From assembly GCA_965205265.1 (NCBI GenBank), contig CBDBGH010000003.1:4064001-4128000 (forward strand): a DNA stretch of 64,000 nt. The letters are read 5' to 3'. Numbering within the stretch: position 1 is the first letter of the stretch; each line of letters opens with the position of its first letter. The DNA is from Alphaproteobacteria bacterium (GTDB lineage: Bacteria > Pseudomonadota > Alphaproteobacteria > Bin95). The notes under the pieces are model-generated. The model did not search any database. It had not been told where the DNA came from and saw nothing but the letters and a program-made list of their open reading frames with translations. Both the position numbers and the translations under genes were made by a program. Shown piece by piece: positions 10,340-57,053 of the stretch.

Positions 10340-11128
10340 ATGACCCGCGAGACAGCCCTCTATGAACGCGACGGCGCGATCGTGACGATCACGCTCAACC
10401 GGCCCGAAAAGCTGAATGCCTTCGACGATGCCGCGGTGGAGGCGCTGTCGGAGGCGCTGGCCCGTTTCGACACCGACCCGAAGGCCAATGTCGCGATCCT
10501 GCACGGGGCGGGACGCGCCTTCTCCACCGGGGCGGATGTGCTGCGCCGGCAGCTGCGCCCGCGCGAGGAACTGGAGCGGTTCGGCGGCCCGCAGGGGCGC
10601 GGGGCGGATTCCGGGCGGCTGTTCGTCCATGCGGTCAACTGGAAGCCGATGGTCGCCGCCGTGCATGGCTATGTCATGGGGCTTGCGGTCGGCATTGCGC
10701 TCGACTGCGACCTGCTGGTGGCCGAGGCCGGCACGCGCTTCCAGATCACCGAGACCTCGCGCGGCCTCGGCGGCTCCGTCTATTGGGGGCTGATGCGGCT
10801 GAGGGGGGCGGGCGCCTTCGGCGACGAGGTGGCGCTCACCGGGCGGTGGTTCACGGCCGAGGAGGCCGCCGCGGCCGGCGTCATCAACCGCCTCGCGCCC
10901 GCCGGCGGCCATCTCGAAGCCGCCCGCGAGCTTGCGGGGACGCTGAACGCCAACCCGCCGCTCAGCGTGCGCTCCACGGTGCGGGCGCGCCGGCGCGAGA
11001 TCGCGCGCGTGCGCTCGGAACTCTCCGCGGCCGCGCAGCCGGAACGGCTCTATCTGACCGAGGATTTCCACGAGGCGGCGCTTGCCTTCAAGGAGAAGCG
11101 CCCGCCCCGCCCGTTCAGGGGCCGCTGA
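10340..11128 (+). CDS. Enoyl-CoA hydratase/isomerase family
   Basis: LNRPEKLNAF, AFSTGAD, KP.VAAVHG. Confidence 0.9.
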   Translation: MTRETALYERDGAIVTITLNRPEKLNAFDDAAVEALSEALARFDTDPKANVAILHGAGRAFSTGADVLRRQLRPREELERFGGPQGRGADSGRLFVHAVNWKPMVAAVHGYVMGLAVGIALDCDLLVAEAGTRFQITETSRGLGGSVYWGLMRLRGAGAFGDEVALTGRWFTAEEAAAAGVINRLAPAGGHLEAARELAGTLNANPPLSVRSTVRARRREIARVRSELSAAAQPERLYLTEDFHEAALAFKEKRPPRPFRGR

Positions 11129-11972
11129 GCGGGTCGAGCCCTTCCAGTACCGGGCGGAAGCCGACCAGGATGTGCTTCAGCCCGGCCGGGCGGCTGTGGC
11201 GGGCGGCCGGGCGGCAGACGCCGCAGCCGCTGTCGTCCCAGGACCCGCCCTTGACCAGGAAACGCCCGGCCCGGGCCTCGGTCGCGGTCCACTCGAAAAC
11301 CTGGCCGGCAGCGTCCAGCAGGCCGAAAGGCGAGGCGCCCCCGGGAAACCGGCCGACCGGCAGCGTGTCGAACGGCCCGCCGTCATGGCTGTTGAGCCGT
11401 TCCGGCGCATAGTCGCCGCCCCAGGGGAACCGGCGCCCGTCCGGGCCGCGCGCCGCCTTCTCCCATTCGAGCTCGGTCGGCAGCCGCCAGACGCGCCCGG
11501 TGCGCGCCGAGAGCCACGCCGTATAGGCCTGCGCGTCCTCATGCGAGACCAGCACGACGGGATGTTGCGCCCGGCCTTCCGGCGGCCGGCCCCCGGCCCA
11601 GGCATGGCGGCGCGTGCGGGGATAGGGGTGGATCAGGCCGTAGCCCTTCCAGGTTTCGGCATCGACATCGGGAGCCCGGTGTCCGGTTTCGGCGATGAAG
11701 GCCGCATATTGCGCATTGGTGACGGGCGTGCGGGCGATCCGGAAGCCCGGCAGGCTGAGCGTCCGGCGGTCGCGCTCGCCGTCGTACCAGCCCTGGCGGC
11801 GGGTGACGGAATGGCCGTAGGCGGCTTCGTCCAGCCGGTAGGCGGCCTCGCGCTCCGCGGCATCGGACCCGGCGATGAAGGCGCCCGCCGGCACCGGCAC
11901 CGTTTCCGGCAGGTCTGCGGCCGCCGCCCCGAAGGCCGCCAGAATCGATGCTCCCGCCAGCGCAACGCGCAT
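11115..11972 (-). CDS. Secreted FGE-sulfatase (SUMF1/EgtB/PvdO) fold protein
   Basis: PVTNAQY, HPVV.VS..DA, RLPTELEWEKAARG, G.VFEWT, KGGSW, GFR; N-terminal signal peptide; CGVC near C-terminus. Confidence 0.88.
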   Translation of the reverse strand: MRVALAGASILAAFGAAAADLPETVPVPAGAFIAGSDAAEREAAYRLDEAAYGHSVTRRQGWYDGERDRRTLSLPGFRIARTPVTNAQYAAFIAETGHRAPDVDAETWKGYGLIHPYPRTRRHAWAGGRPPEGRAQHPVVLVSHEDAQAYTAWLSARTGRVWRLPTELEWEKAARGPDGRRFPWGGDYAPERLNSHDGGPFDTLPVGRFPGGASPFGLLDAAGQVFEWTATEARAGRFLVKGGSWDDSGCGVCRPAARHSRPAGLKHILVGFRPVLEGLDPLSGP

Positions 11973-12153
11973 CTCTTCGCTCCCTTTTCGACGGTCAGGT
12001 GAGCCTTTCCGAAGGCCGCGCGCAAGGCCCGCTCACGCAGTTGTGACCGGCTTCCTCCGTTTTTACGGGCCGCCATATCGGTTAGCATAACGGCAGGCGA
12101 TTTCCGGATCGTCCGGTGCATTATCGGGAAAACCACCGAACGGGAGAACTGTT

Positions 12154-12489
12154 ATGAAGAGCTACAAGGCACGCCTTCTTTCCACGGCGGTCGTCAGTGT
12201 GGGCATGGCCGTCGGCGCCGTCGGCGCGGCCAGCCTCGCCGGCACCGCCTATGCCGCCTGCAAGCCCGCGGCCGCGGCCTGCAAGGCGTGCGGCGCCTGC
12301 AATCCCTGCAAGCCGAAAAAGGCCTGCGGCGCGTGCAACCCCTGCAAACCGGCCTGCGGTGCGTGCAATCCCTGCAAGCCCGCCTGCGGTGCCTGCAACC
12401 CCTGTAAGCCCGCCTGTGGCGCTTGCAATCCGTGCAAGCCCAAGAATGCCTGCGGCGCGTGCAATCCCTGCAAGCCCAAGAGCAACTGA
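12154..12489 (+). CDS. Secreted Cys-rich repeat peptide (6x [10 protein letters not shown])
   Basis: RBS GGGAG, Sec-type signal ending AYA, repeats differ only at synonymous positions, own terminator. Confidence 0.88.
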
Positions 12490-12502
12490 CGCCCGACGGG
12501 CA

Positions 12503-12532
12503 GCGGCCGGCCTTCGGGCCGGCCGCGCTTTT
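12503..12532 (+). terminator. Intrinsic terminator after the Cys-rich peptide gene
   Basis: GCGGCCGGCC-TTCG-GGCCGGCCGC 10-bp stem followed by GCTTTT. Confidence 0.75.
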
Positions 12533-12567: not shown

Positions 12568-13122
12568 TCAGGCGGCGTCGAGAGCCGCCTCGGCTTCCGG
12601 CTCCAGATCGAGCTGCAGGGCGTCGTTGAAGCGGTTGAAGGCGCCGCAGAGCGCGATCCGCCAGGTCAGTTCGACGATCTGCTCCTCGCTGAAATGCGCT
12701 TTCAGCCGCTCGAAGATGCCGTCCCGCATTCTCCCCGCATTGTCGTTGACCTGGACGGCGTAATCGACCACCAGGCGGTCGATCTCGTCCAGTTCCGGAT
12801 GGTTTTCCGGGTCGTCCAGCAGGCTGGCGACGCCGGCGGCGCTCATGCCCTCCACGGTCAGCATCGGCCCGTGATGGGCCACGCAATAGTCGCAGGCATT
12901 GCGCTGCGAGACCGCGACCAGCGCCAGTTCCAGATAGCGCCGCGGCAGCACCGCCTCCCGCCTCAGCGCGGTCAGCAGGCCGAATGTGTGTTCCAGGATC
13001 GGCGGCCGCCGGCCGAGCGCCCCGACAAGGCTGGCGAACGGGCCGTAGGATGCCGCGTCGTCCATGAGAGGATGCAGGGCGGGCGGCAGGTCTTCGCGGG
13101 CAGCATAGGCGATGCGGGCCAT
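12568..13122 (-). CDS. Carboxymuconolactone decarboxylase / AhpD-like protein
   Basis: ELALVAVS..NACDYCVAHH; FSEEQIVEL...FNRFNDAL. Confidence 0.88.
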   Translation of the reverse strand: MARIAYAAREDLPPALHPLMDDAASYGPFASLVGALGRRPPILEHTFGLLTALRREAVLPRRYLELALVAVSQRNACDYCVAHHGPMLTVEGMSAAGVASLLDDPENHPELDEIDRLVVDYAVQVNDNAGRMRDGIFERLKAHFSEEQIVELTWRIALCGAFNRFNDALQLDLEPEAEAALDAA

Positions 13123-18274: not shown

Positions 18275-18301
18275 AGCGCGCCCCGTCCGGCCTCATTTAC
18301 C

Positions 18302-18949
18302 GTCGCCCCGGCCCCCGAGCCTTGCCGCATGCACACATCTGTCGGAGTTGGCCGAGCATCGCATTCCCCGCCGTCATGCCCGGACTTGTTCCACTGCTGT
18401 CCGGTTCAGCCGTCGGGCGAAGCCGGGCGGGCCTCGGTCGGGTTTTCGGGGGCGCGCGGCGTCCCCGGTCGGCCTCCTGTCCGTCATGCCCGAACGCCCC
18501 CCTTCGACAGGCTCAGGGCAGGCTCTTTCGTCATACCCGGACTTGTTCCGGGTATCTCTCTCAAGCGGCTCTGCCGGGCGGCCGTATGGATGCCCGGAAC
18601 AAGTCCGGGCATGACGATATGGGGGGCGGGTATGACGATGTGAGGGCCGGGCCGCCGGGCGTCGATCCGAGTCCCGATCCCGCCGAACCCCTCGAAACCC
18701 GGTTGAATCCAGGCCATGCGCCCTGCCCGCAAATCCTAAACCGGACAGCAATGGACTTGTTCCGGGCATGACGGGAAGAGGGTCCGACCTTCTCTCCACT
18801 GGCTGCGGCGGCATCGGGAATCGGGGATGGGCTCCCGCTTTCGCGGGGGCGACGAATGGGGGGGACGGAGCGCGACGTTACTCGCCCGGCAGGCGCACCG
18901 CAGGCAAACAGAAATGTGCGAATCCGGTAGGCTCGGGGGCCGGGGCGAC
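18302..18949. repeat. Nested REP/MITE composite, copy 1
   Basis: Outer inverted pair GTCGCCCCGGCCCCCGAGC (18302-18320 / 18931-18949); Tn5-like 19-bp ends (18322-18340, 18912-18930); inner MITE; several GTCATRCCCGGACTTGTTCCGGG palindromes. Confidence 0.8.
18392..18753. mobile_element. MITE inserted in a REP palindrome
   Basis: Terminal inverted repeats CACTGCTGTCCGGTT / AACCGGACAGCAATG (14/15); direct repeat GACTTGTTC on both sides; removal restores GTCATGCCCGGACTTGTTCCGGGCATGAC. Confidence 0.7.
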
Positions 18950-53749: not shown

Positions 53750-55309
53750 TCAGGCCCTTGCTGTCGGCAGGGGCGAGCGGTCCACGGCGGCGATCTCCTC
53801 CCTGAGGAGGCGTTCCATCAGCCGGGCCTTTTCCGCGGCGGCGCCCGGATCGTCCCAGAGGTTGCGGAACTCGCCGGGGTCGGCTTCGAGGTCGTAGAGT
53901 TCGCCCTGGTCCTGTCCGTCGAAGACGCTGAGGCGCCAGCGTCGGTCCACCAGCGAGTGCACCCTTGGCGGACCGCCGAGGCCGGGATGGGGCCGCTGGT
54001 GGTCGTACTGGATGAAGGCGGCGTCGCGAACGGGGCCGCCGAGCAGGCTCAGGCCCTGCATGCCGTGGAACGGCTCGACCCGCGCCCGTTCGAGGATGGT
54101 GGCCGGAATGTCGATGGTCTGCGCCATGTCTTCCCGGCGCACGCCCGAGGGGCCGTCGGGGTCCGCCCAGATCAGGGGCACGCGGGTGATCTCCCGGTAG
54201 GGCTCGGCGCCCTTGAGCAGGAGGCCGTGGTCGCCCAGATGGTCGCCATGGTCGCTGGTGAAGGCGAGCACCGTGCGCCCGGCCGCGCCGCCCCGCTCCA
54301 GCGCGGCCAGCACGCGTGCTATCGCGTCGTCGATCATTTCGATCATGCCGCAGGTAAGCGCCCTCGCCTCCAGCGCTTCGCGGAGCGTGCAGCCGATGCT
54401 GTTCATGCCCTGGAGTGCGGCCTTGCCCTGCTGCCGTTCCCGATGGAGGGCCGCAACATGCGGCGGCGGCGTCCAGTCGTTCGGCTCGAAGGCGGCGGGC
54501 ACCGGCATGTCCTCGGGGCGGTAGGCGCTCCAATAGCGTCCCGGCGGGTTGAACGGATGGTGCGGGTCGGGGAAGGAGACCATGAGGAAGAACGGCTCGC
54601 TGTCCGCCGCATCGAGCCAGGACACCGCCTGCCCGGCAATGTAGTTCGTCGAATAGAGCGCCTCCGGCAGCGCCGTGCGCACGGCCTGCGGGCAGACATA
54701 GTCATGGGCAAGCTGGTTCTCCGGACCCAGCATCCTCTCCGCAGCCGGCTCCCGCTCGGCGAGCCACCGCGCATAGTCGCCGCCGCAGGCGTCCCCGTGC
54801 CCGGTGACGAGGTCCACATGGTCGAAGCCGTAGAAGGGCAGCGCCACGCCGGATCCGGAGGACGGGGCTTCCTGCCCGTAGGCTGGCGCGCGGTAGTCGT
54901 GCCGGCTGGCCTCGGCCAGAGCGCCGCCCGCGCGGTGGAAGCCGCTCCGGTCGGGGCGCGGCCCGCCATAGGCCGGCTGCCCGGTGAAGTTCTGCAGGTG
55001 GCTCTTGCCGATGAGCGCCGTCAGATAGCCGGCATCGCGCAGGAGATCCGTGAAGGTCACCGCCTCGGTCGATAGCGGGATGCCGTTCATGCGCACGCCG
55101 TGCAGCGAAGGCATGCGCCCGGTCATCAGGCTCGCCCGGTTGGGCATGCAGACAGGGCTCGCCACATGGCAGTTGTCGAACGCGACGCCCCGGCGCGCAA
55201 GACCGTCGATCGCCGGTGTCCTCAGCACGGGATGGCCGTAGCAGCCAAGATGGTCAGCGCGCTGCTGGTCGGTCACGAACAGGATGAAATTCGGGCGTCG
55301 TCCGTTCAT
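53750..55309 (-). CDS. Sulfatase (Cys-type)
   Basis: RPNFILFVTDQQR, CMPNRASLMTG, GKSH, PHHP, TSDHG. Confidence 0.93.
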   Translation of the reverse strand: MNGRRPNFILFVTDQQRADHLGCYGHPVLRTPAIDGLARRGVAFDNCHVASPVCMPNRASLMTGRMPSLHGVRMNGIPLSTEAVTFTDLLRDAGYLTALIGKSHLQNFTGQPAYGGPRPDRSGFHRAGGALAEASRHDYRAPAYGQEAPSSGSGVALPFYGFDHVDLVTGHGDACGGDYARWLAEREPAAERMLGPENQLAHDYVCPQAVRTALPEALYSTNYIAGQAVSWLDAADSEPFFLMVSFPDPHHPFNPPGRYWSAYRPEDMPVPAAFEPNDWTPPPHVAALHRERQQGKAALQGMNSIGCTLREALEARALTCGMIEMIDDAIARVLAALERGGAAGRTVLAFTSDHGDHLGDHGLLLKGAEPYREITRVPLIWADPDGPSGVRREDMAQTIDIPATILERARVEPFHGMQGLSLLGGPVRDAAFIQYDHQRPHPGLGGPPRVHSLVDRRWRLSVFDGQDQGELYDLEADPGEFRNLWDDPGAAAEKARLMERLLREEIAAVDRSPLPTARA

Positions 55310-55352
55310 GGCTGCGCCCGTCGCGCCTTCATGGCCGGCGCCGCCCGGAGCC

Positions 55353-57053
55353 TTACCCGGATGCCGTTTGCGCCGCTTCGCGCTTCGCCGCTTCTTCGGC
55401 GACCAGCTCCTTCTTGGAGAGCTTGCCGATCATGGTCTTGGGCAGCTCGTCGCGGAACTCGATATGCTTGGGCTGCTCATGGCGGCCTAGCTTGTCGGCG
55501 AGGAATGCGCGCAGCCCGTCCGCGTCCAGCGCCTGGCCCTCGCCGAGCTTGACGAAGGCCTTGACCGCCTCGCCGGTATAATCGTCCGGCACGCCGATGA
55601 CGGTGACCTCCTCGACCGCGGGATGGCGGTAGATCGCCTCCTCGACATTGCGCGGGAAGACGTTGTAGCCGCTCACCAGAACGAGGTCTTTCTTGCGGTC
55701 GATGATGAACAGGTAGCCGTCCTCGTCGAGATGCCCGACATCGCCCGTGCGCAGCCGGCCCTCGACGATGGTCTCGGCGGTTGCGTCTTCGCGGCGCCAG
55801 TAGCCCTTCATCACCTGCGGGCCGGAGATGCAGATTTCCCCGTCCTCGCCCTGCGGCAGGACCTTGCGGGGGTCCTCCTTGTCCACGATGGTGATCGTGG
55901 TGCCGGGGACGGGCAGGCCGACCGAGCTTTCCTTGTTGACGCCCTCGAAGGGGTTGGAGGCGGCGATGGGCGCGGATTCGGTGAGCCCGTAGCCCTCGAC
56001 CAGCTTGCAGCCGGAAAGCTCCTCGAAGCGCCGCTTGATCTCGACCGGCAGCGGCGCGCCGCCCGACATGCAGGTCTTGATGGAGGTGAGGTCGAAACTC
56101 GCGAGCTTCGGGTGGTTGACGATGGCCGTGTACATCGTCGGCACGCCGGGGAAGAGCGTGGGCTTCTTCTTCGTGATGTCCTGCAGCACCGGGTCGAGCT
56201 CGAAGCGCGGCCGCATGACGATGGACCCGCCGATGGCGATGGTGAAGTTCATCACCACAGACATCGCGAACACATGGAAGAAGGGCAGCACGCCCATCAT
56301 CCGCTCCCGGCCCGGCTCCAGCGAGGGATTCCAGAGCAGCGCCTGGTGGATATTCGCGTGGAGGTTCGCATGGGTCAGCATCGCGCCCTTCGGCACGCCG
56401 GTCGTGCCGCCGGTATATTGGAATACGGCGACATCCTCGCGCGGGTCGATTGCCGCCGGCTCATATCCGCCGTCATTGTCGATGAGGCGGCTGAAGGGCA
56501 CATGGCTCCCGTCGTCCGGCGCCTTCGCGATCTCGCTGCGCTTCAGGAGCCCGAAGAGCAGGTTCTTCGGGAAGGGCAGCACCTCCTGGAGAGTGCCCAC
56601 CACCAGCTTGCGGATGCGCGTCTTCTTCAGCAGCGCCGCCATCTTGGGATAGAGCGCGGCCAGGCCGAGCGTCACCATGATGTCGGTCTCGGAATCCTCG
56701 ATCTGGTAGGCGAGTTCCTCCTCCGAATAAAGCGGGCTGTAGTTCACCACCGTGCCGCCGGCCTTGAGGACGCCGAAGAAGGAGACGACGAATTGCGGGC
56801 AGTTGGGCAGGAAGAGCCCGACCTTGACGCCCTTGTCCACGCCGAGGGCGCGGAAGCCGGCGGCGGCGCGGTCCACCATCGCCCCGAGTTCGCCGTAGCT
56901 GTATGTCCTGCCGAGGAAGTCCATCGCCTCATTGTCGGGGAAGCGGCGGAGGGACTCGTCCAGGATGGCGAAGAGCGGGCCCTCGGGAATCTCCGCGTCC
57001 CAGTTGACATGGCCGGGGTAGCCCGCGAGCCAAGGATGCCGGTCATCTGCCAT
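55353..57053 (-). CDS. Long-chain fatty acid--CoA ligase
   Basis: QYTGGTTGVPKGA, EGYGLTE, GPQVMKGYW, LRTGD. Confidence 0.93.
   Translation of the reverse strand: MADDRHPWLAGYPGHVNWDAEIPEGPLFAILDESLRRFPDNEAMDFLGRTYSYGELGAMVDRAAAGFRALGVDKGVKVGLFLPNCPQFVVSFFGVLKAGGTVVNYSPLYSEEELAYQIEDSETDIMVTLGLAALYPKMAALLKKTRIRKLVVGTLQEVLPFPKNLLFGLLKRSEIAKAPDDGSHVPFSRLIDNDGGYEPAAIDPREDVAVFQYTGGTTGVPKGAMLTHANLHANIHQALLWNPSLEPGRERMMGVLPFFHVFAMSVVMNFTIAIGGSIVMRPRFELDPVLQDITKKKPTLFPGVPTMYTAIVNHPKLASFDLTSIKTCMSGGAPLPVEIKRRFEELSGCKLVEGYGLTESAPIAASNPFEGVNKESSVGLPVPGTTITIVDKEDPRKVLPQGEDGEICISGPQVMKGYWRREDATAETIVEGRLRTGDVGHLDEDGYLFIIDRKKDLVLVSGYNVFPRNVEEAIYRHPAVEEVTVIGVPDDYTGEAVKAFVKLGEGQALDADGLRAFLADKLGRHEQPKHIEFRDELPKTMIGKLSKKELVAEEAAKREAAQTASG

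Follow-up and report, generated by a model that had tools for sequence, protein, structure and literature searches.

The window analysed here is a 64,000-nucleotide stretch of an alphaproteobacterial genome (GCA_965205265.1, contig CBDBGH010000003.1), and its subject of interest is a divergent gene pair encoding a small cysteine-repeat peptide and a protein with the fold of formylglycine-generating enzyme (FGE, SUMF1). The explanation that we prefer, tentatively and with a little less than even confidence, is that the pair is what is left at this locus of an envelope module conserved in marine proteobacteria, the module being a CenR-controlled periplasmic thiol buffer that is probably matured by DUF6969 and has the FGE-fold protein as an accessory. 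The constant partner of the repeats is DUF6969 and not the FGE-fold protein; the repeats recur as arms fused to haem domains; and the intergenic region of the pair holds a conserved TCAC-N6-GTGA palindrome, which matches the CenR box published for genes of envelope and peroxide stress.

Cysteine repeats and DUF6969

The FGE-fold gene (11115..11972, minus strand, 285 aa) and the peptide gene (12154..12489, plus strand, 111 aa) are separated by a gap of 181 bp (11973-12153). The original prediction had described two real open reading frames, divergent across this gap, and a peptide of six repeat units, all of which are present in the sequence. The peptide consists of a predicted signal peptide of approximately residues 1-34 and a 77-residue mature part, in which 20 Cys are found in six exact 10-residue units. 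The pairwise base differences among these units fall at third codon positions without exception (60/60), showing that the peptide is under selection and that the repeat is kept at the protein level. Signal peptides had been proposed for both proteins as well, and export of the two is suggested by a hydrophobic N-terminal window with an A-x-A site in each (2.19 and 2.26 on the Kyte-Doolittle scale). Such a window was present in 28 of 31 FGE relatives, 24 of 25 peptides and 0 of 70 DUF6969 proteins. The 5.7-Mb genome gave no second NPC-repeat frame, only two ribonucleotide-reductase-like frames with two scattered NPC words. No Pfam or NCBIfam family was obtained above cut-off for the peptide and four relatives, and in the Atlas the peptide falls only into unnamed clusters, below 0.9. 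In one sponge metatranscriptome, contigs of a relative (85-95% alike) cover the FGE gene together with the 5′ portion of the peptide gene; these are contigs only, of small share, and no proof of transcription.

Among the best 120 of 877 relatives of the repeat (E ≤ 0.001), the longer ones are mostly repeats fused to a P460-like or SoxA/TsdA-like cytochrome domain, and a few are fused to other domains. The P460-type fusion belongs to alphaproteobacteria and the SoxA/TsdA-like fusion to gammaproteobacteria. The P460-like protein scores PF16694 and has invariant K84, C143, C146 and H147 in 18 rows, thereby resembling cytochrome P460 and c′-beta in its CxxCH and in a Lys at the cross-link position. 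This Lys aligns with the cross-linking Lys of cytochrome P460 in a weak alignment (E 0.08), and two c′-beta chains show Met or Phe there. According to the available text of PMC11928373, the residues of the matching proteins are Lys70, Met79 and Phe61, and formation of the P460 cross-link is peroxide-dependent. Unlike cytochrome P460, the module version has long poly-cysteine arms and occurs in non-nitrifying marine alphaproteobacteria, and it is absent from the present genome.

Not all members of the repeat family contain the NPC word. Relatives with CGACGAKK, GCCAAE or CGGS repeats have no C-x-P, and DUF6969 adjoins unrelated Cys repeats, such as secreted GCCAAE or CGGS peptides and a signal-less APCKG peptide, which indicates that it is the cysteine that is conserved and not the NPC word. 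The conserved trait is a dense low-complexity cysteine array rather than the CxPxK word. A lipoprotein-like peptide with GCCAAE repeats lies directly upstream of DUF6969 in one genome (G424, L249:6682-7020, minus strand).

In the present genome DUF6969 is intact at C3:551853, elsewhere on the chromosome and outside the window. The invariant residues in 70 sequences are H52, H70, H72, H84, H86, H118, D57, D60 and E81, and a Gln and an NRWVT word are likewise shared. A model with pLDDT 95.6 places the histidines on or next to adjacent strands of a single sheet. When the model was compared with the PDB, Foldseek gave nothing at E ≤ 0.001, and the best VIA match had Z 3.3 with an rmsd of 3.0 over 73 residues; a missing match is no proof of a new fold. 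Sequence searches likewise found nothing. The conserved residues and the lack of a hydrophobic N-terminus suggest a metal-dependent cytoplasmic enzyme. The family counts 1295 representatives at 50% identity and was found in 5 of 151 genomes of a phylum-wide sample, two of them outside the class. In two genomes (G266 and G268), both without peptide and FGE genes, DUF6969 is split over two frames. A literature search that left subscription journals and supplements aside returned no paper naming DUF6969 and none containing the module or the repeat strings. DUF6969 domains fused to a coiled coil, a membrane anchor and an SH3-like end were seen in P0302 and P0350, the latter having lost several of the invariant His.

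The association was counted in 301 alphaproteobacterial genomes of at least 90% completeness, which contain the FGE subfamily in 25, the repeat profile in 40 and DUF6969 in 69 cases. These sets are nested, FGE subfamily within repeats and repeats within DUF6969. DUF6969 is found in 40/40 repeat-positive genomes, and repeats and DUF6969 are both found in 24/25 FGE genomes, the exception (G034) being the weakest full-length match and having neither. Sixteen of the 40 repeat-positive genomes lack the FGE subfamily, and the FGE-fold protein was rejected as an obligatory maturase on this ground. When repeat-profile matches were inspected, 29 of 30 had NPC repeats and one had CGACGAKK repeats. An independent DNA pattern (three NPC codon sets) matched 51 genomes, 43 of them with DUF6969, and missed the FGE genomes G040, G042 and G063. 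Among the eight matched genomes without DUF6969, five matches were out of frame or contained stops, two were undecided and one was a real repeat in an 810-contig assembly. A single-CNPC DNA pattern, matching 294 of the 301 genomes, was dropped as unspecific.

The same association was approached from the FGE side with 160 loci, comprising the best 80 of at least 439 genome relatives and the best 80 of at least 490 metagenome relatives. It had been suggested that an NPC-repeat frame should be looked for within 2 kb of FGE homologues; one was found at 92/160 loci, every time within 1358 bp of the FGE gene, and DUF6969 at 119/160. Dereplication at 90% identity left 131 loci, of which 71 have 3-kb flanks. 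In these 71, repeats were found at 45, DUF6969 at 56, a P460-like gene at 36 (33 of them fused to repeats) and an unnamed secreted four-Cys protein at 16. On the FGE tree, a quick tree of weak deep support that was used to show spread alone, these loci occur in many different branches. In the clade of the window only the FGE gene and the peptide remain side by side. Where the FGE locus has no repeats, these were found elsewhere in 10/10 genomes tested; five of the ten were tested for DUF6969, and all five were positive, four with repeats adjoining. Moreover, a P460-like gene is present in 34/69 DUF6969 genomes vs 6/79 controls.

The FGE-fold protein and the intergenic operator

The 285-aa protein matches the Pfam family FGE-sulfatase (PF03781) with 150.9 bits (cut-off 23.3) and stays under all NCBIfam equivalog cut-offs (PvdO, EgtB, SenA, OvoA and GldK/GldJ), its best score being 71 bits vs 350-500. 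Foldseek related its model to S. coelicolor FGE with E 7e-14 and to FGE-fold structures with TM of about 0.6-0.7, the nearest solved relatives being ToxD and CalU17, which are members that do not form formylglycine, followed by true FGEs. It has only two Cys, C250 and C253, and the invariant C-G-V-C codons are at 11214..11225 (minus strand), in the loop after GGS. GCGxCR is kept in 119 of the 120 best homologues, which are 64-94% identical, and at 158/160 loci, so that the distinct subfamily postulated in the original prediction stands. The GGSWDDSGCGVCRPAAR motif was found in the sequence as predicted. The protein also holds KGGSWDDSGCGVCRPAAR, as had been stated, but does not end with it, as 27 more residues come after. 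The model is poor at the CxxC loop (pLDDT <50 at 244-253), and therefore no active-site geometry is claimed.

It is highly improbable that the FGE-fold protein is a copper oxidase turning the Cys of CNPCK into formylglycine, or the sulfatase maturase of the genome. The fold, the GGS serine and the two nearby cysteines in the same loop are kept as in T. curvata FGE, and the genome has several Cys-type sulfatase-like genes, one of them in the window (53753-55429, minus strand), together with another FGE-fold protein without the cysteines; no match was obtained in the genome for a canonical FGE or for an anaerobic sulfatase maturase. Nevertheless, the cysteines are not where an FGE has them. The Cu(I) ligands of T. 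curvata FGE, Cys269 and Cys274, stand 3 and 8 residues after Ser266, whereas C250 and C253 stand at +6 and +9 from S244 of GGS, with an Asp at +3, all three being invariant in 31 rows; hence the CxxC spacing unlike the canonical CxxxxC, which had been pointed out earlier, is borne out, and the loop is two residues shorter. In the T. curvata enzyme Ser266, Trp228 and Arg276 surround the Cu site and the substrate is read via Pro3 and Arg5 (available text of PMC6676471 for the foregoing), the core substrate motif of FGE being CX[P/A]XR (available text of PMC2459300). Residue 5 of C-x-P-x- in 159 family proteins is A in 1354, N in 974, G in 248, K in 75 and R in 4 of 2760 cases, so that the substrate Arg occurs in only 4/2760 and K or R in 79/2760 positions; some relatives lack C-x-P, and the proposal that the peptide is a CxPxK substrate for formylglycine has to be given up. 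The fold word NVWEW, the Trp of which we take to be the O2-pocket Trp228, is altered to QVFEW in the window protein and to QVFEW or QVYEW in 119/120 homologues.

Formylglycine formation on CxPxK was thus rejected on the residue-5 counts and on the FGE cysteine spacing that is not kept, and the 16 of 40 repeat genomes without an FGE-fold protein speak against it as well. A motif scan found no sulfatase motif at any of the 160 loci, which together with the signal peptide argues against a role as sulfatase maturase. Unlike FGE, the window protein has a predicted signal peptide and no sulfatase near it, and its partner peptide has no CxPxR. From its sequence the FGE-fold protein may be at most a two-cysteine metal or redox site on an FGE scaffold, and it is not classed as an FGE. 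At L203:5324-7567 (G070) the fold was recruited a second time: a generic FGE-fold protein of another kind is encoded there in one row with a P460-like gene and DUF6969, and NPC repeats are absent.

The FGE-fold start codon lies 61 bp from the palindrome between the two genes (TCAC-N6-GTGA, 12033..12046, not assigned to a strand), and the peptide start codon follows 107 bp after it. TCACGCAGTTGTGA is invariant in 9/9 aligned close relatives including the window, with a variable left flank. Upstream of repeat genes, an unbiased word count found TCAC-N7-TGA in 57/121 regions vs 0.6 expected, and a refined site matrix, which was trained on the same regions, recovered 103/134 vs 3/134 shuffled regions. 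The site is also found at 50/1052 other genes of the loci, and many module promoters show a third half-site 10 bp downstream of the palindrome. By text search the motif was recognized as the CenR site of S. meliloti. As given in the available text of PMC9561847 and PMC11328730, the site AGTCAC-N6-GTGACT lies at -42 of srlA and is bound by CenR in shift assays, and srlA encodes a signal-peptide thioredoxin-fold protein that is needed for tolerance of H2O2, cumene hydroperoxide and salt. In R. sphaeroides, 29/31 direct CenR targets are envelope proteins (available text of PMC9275681). The module resembles the CenKR regulon in the upstream TCAC-N6-GTGA and in exported thiol proteins as targets, and differs from it in the third half-site and in that the module genes are not named among CenR targets in the available text of these three papers.

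Extended sites number 20 in 8/10 genomes vs 3 for a reversed control, and precede repeat genes, P460 paralogues, TlpA-like redoxins, a YHS protein and a porin, several being without a clear target. As a control, DUF1223 genes, taken as srlA homologues, score >11 in 4/5 other module-bearing genomes, not in the present genome. Since the alphaproteobacterial module genes stand behind a CenR box, their induction most likely goes together with that of the envelope and peroxide-stress regulon; CenR would bind and control the module promoters. A gene for a secreted YHS-like protein (C3:1660454-1660906, minus strand) has a strong TCAC-N6-GTGA site ~60 bp upstream, and a YHS protein with an extended site occurs in another genome (L299). 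In two genomes (L281 and L289) an extended CenR-like site lies between argH and a TlpA-like redoxin gene.

Explanations of the module

The thiol buffer that we prefer would work as follows. CenR would switch on exported poly-cysteine chains, which are predicted to leave via Sec either free or as arms on periplasmic c-type cytochromes. The second core component, DUF6969, a putative cytoplasmic His-cluster protein, would bind metal at its six invariant histidines and process or modify the cysteines ahead of export, in the way that bufferins are treated by MNIO enzymes. In the periplasm the many cysteines may take up oxidants, reactive sulfur or soft metal ions, and the chains may feed or protect the haem enzymes that bear the same arms. 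The FGE-fold protein would be an optional periplasmic partner, the CxxC of which could exchange with the cysteine arms, recycle them or unload them, and it would make no formylglycine. Catalysis by DUF6969, the buffer role and the role of the CxxC are inferences. Metal binding is likely a by-product of 20 thiols. The P460-like association and the CenR box favour a general envelope thiol/redox buffer, with sulfur handling in a subset.

A more far-reaching version of this explanation is possible rather than probable: DUF6969 would found a new class of multi-histidine metalloenzymes, of unsolved fold, that modify cysteines in Sec-exported repeats, and the arms, serviced by CxxC FGE-fold proteins, would act as free buffers and on P460- and SoxA/TsdA-type haem enzymes, forming an unrecognised redox branch of the CenKR regulon in marine alphaproteobacteria. 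The module is common: of the 301 sampled genomes, 69 have DUF6969 and at least 40 have repeat genes. Its cultured carriers include Pelagibius litoralis and Denitrobaculum tricleocarpae. None of its core parts has an assigned function or a solved fold. If it is true that DUF6969 modifies cysteines, this would be a new peptide-modifying chemistry parallel to that of MNIO. Moreover, the module offers a testable function to the P460-type cytochromes found outside nitrifiers, to a non-canonical FGE-fold subfamily and to CenKR targets not yet recognised.

Several observations weigh against the CenR-controlled buffer. In the present genome no CenR-like site precedes DUF6969 or the srlA homologue, and a third half-site is present only in degenerate form. 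CenR could not be identified there, OmpR-type regulators giving nothing in a motif scan, and no P460-like or c10 gene was found. The gammaproteobacterial loci are mostly without the site (1/19 regions above score 11). About 20 of 69 DUF6969 genomes show no detected Cys repeat, two of these having the split gene and divergent repeats having been sought only near DUF6969; as DUF6969 is often beside a small cytochrome c in such genomes, it may serve cytochromes and not the peptide. DUF6969 has no solved relative, and its metal binding and catalysis are predicted from conserved residues. The YeeE and rhodanese neighbours suggest that part of the family handles sulfur, and kinship among the genomes makes the counts look more significant than they are.

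The competing explanations overlap with one another in the case of metallophore, sulfur carrier and passive peptide. It is somewhat unlikely that DUF6969 irreversibly converts cysteines in the cytoplasm (to a heterocycle, thioamide or similar) and that copper or another soft metal is chelated by the product after export, with the CxxC of the FGE-fold protein loading or unloading it. The layout is that of oxazolin and bufferin, the MNIO/DUF692-modified and Sec-exported Cys metallophores among peptides that are made by the ribosome and modified after translation (available text of PMC11252979 and bioRxiv 10.1101/2024.03.18.585515), with a signal peptide, a repeated Cys core, a cytoplasmic multi-His enzyme as candidate maturase and an alphaproteobacterial envelope stress setting; sequence-diverse precursors stand directly upstream of DUF6969, and a near-match of the same CenR-like operator lies 127 bp upstream of bufA in the present genome. 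However, this genome already has a complete bufferin operon of its own (DUF2282 precursor, MNIO and DUF2063; C3:3668785 onward, L278:1090-3064). The earlier statement that no MNIO is nearby holds for the locus, by motif scan of the 160 loci, and fails for the genome, in which the separate MNIO operon has its own bufferin precursor; MNIO is missing from 2/5 module genomes tested. Unlike bufferin loci, the module loci have no MNIO, DUF2063 or DoxX and the partner DUF6969 matches no solved fold; the repeats are CNPC, CGAC or NPCAAK vs EGKCG, the peptide is not DUF2282, and haem fusions and an FGE-fold accessory belong to the module. The arms fused to haem enzymes suit redox over sequestration. 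NPC, DUF6969, SUMF1 and P460 are not mentioned in the main text, so far as available, of an MNIO survey (PMC12452194). Although SCO was found in 6/131 loci and a cupredoxin-like protein in 28/131, copper efflux or oxidase genes were found at 0/160 loci: Pfam on 29, 47 and 103 neighbour representatives (the last from 103 of 126 remaining clusters, with proteins >700 aa left out) gave no copper-efflux gene, and no P-type ATPase or multicopper-oxidase motif was found at the 160 loci. The cupredoxin-like proteins (alignment A4, L055:6928-7422 with its relatives) form a secreted family without a name, 150-175 aa long, whose members share three invariant Cys and a CPLN word; their likeness to plastocyanin/cupredoxin is weak (E 1.4), and no Pfam or NCBIfam match was obtained. 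A copper role for the pair has little neighbourhood support. At C3:2903504-2904848 (minus strand) a cytochrome c and two unnamed secreted Cys-triad proteins (clusters c55 and c54) are encoded, which in other genomes stand beside the module with SCO; P0231, a repeat protein, carries a fused c55-like domain.

A sulfur carrier, in which the cysteines would hold persulfide or thiosulfate-derived sulfur, loaded by haem domains or rhodanese and passed via a YeeE channel, with DUF6969 as a cytoplasmic persulfide-handling metalloenzyme, is unlikely. The repeats fused to SoxA/TsdA-type cytochrome domains speak for it, and so do the genes within 4 kb, with YeeE in 17, exported rhodanese in 10 and DUF302 in 14 of 131 loci, but YeeE and rhodanese together account for only 27 loci and are not nearby in 104/131. 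The domain match itself is barely above cut-off (PF21342, 30.1 vs 27), and the domain has no PDB relative. The module shares the logic of a periplasmic Cys carrier with Sox (SoxYZ, SoxXA/TsdA) and YeeE/rhodanese relays, and part of the family has a SoxA/TsdA-like domain and YeeE or rhodanese genes nearby; the module is unlike Sox in its many cysteines vs one GGCGG arm and in its DUF6969 core. The Sox link was rejected on the soxB counts (12/69 DUF6969 genomes vs 15/79 controls, and none in the present genome), and the operator matches CenR and no described sulfur repressor. Improbable, finally, is a plain unmodified metallothionein-like or structural disulfide peptide linked only by shared regulation to a DUF6969 and an FGE-fold protein that serve cytochromes, e.g., in P460 maturation. 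The ~20 DUF6969 genomes without detected repeats, often with a cytochrome c beside the gene, and the P460-like genes without arms would suit such a peptide; nevertheless, the present genome keeps peptide, FGE-fold gene and intact DUF6969 without a P460-like gene, and in loci that have no P460, DUF6969 is found immediately behind Cys peptides of diverse kinds. Taken together, the module is not a member of any family whose defining features were testable, which agrees with the original prediction that the system does not fit the recognised systems of Cys-rich precursors.

Other features of the window

A GC-rich 10-bp hairpin with a UUCG loop and a short T run (12503..12532, plus strand) lies 3′ of the peptide gene and is probably its terminator, although its folding z is only -2.0 and a consensus terminator scan did not pick it; the sigma-70 and terminator scans gave no matches. 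Converging on the peptide gene is an AhpD/CMD-family peroxidase-like gene with a CxxC (12568-13122, minus strand). It was dismissed as a part of the module, being tied to the clade of the window and a few other loci (7/131 within 4 kb). Further along, at 18300-18800 of the window, and likewise near C3:2903000, a repeated palindromic element with words like CCGGACTTGTTCCGGGCATC was noticed, which resembles a REP-type repeat family.

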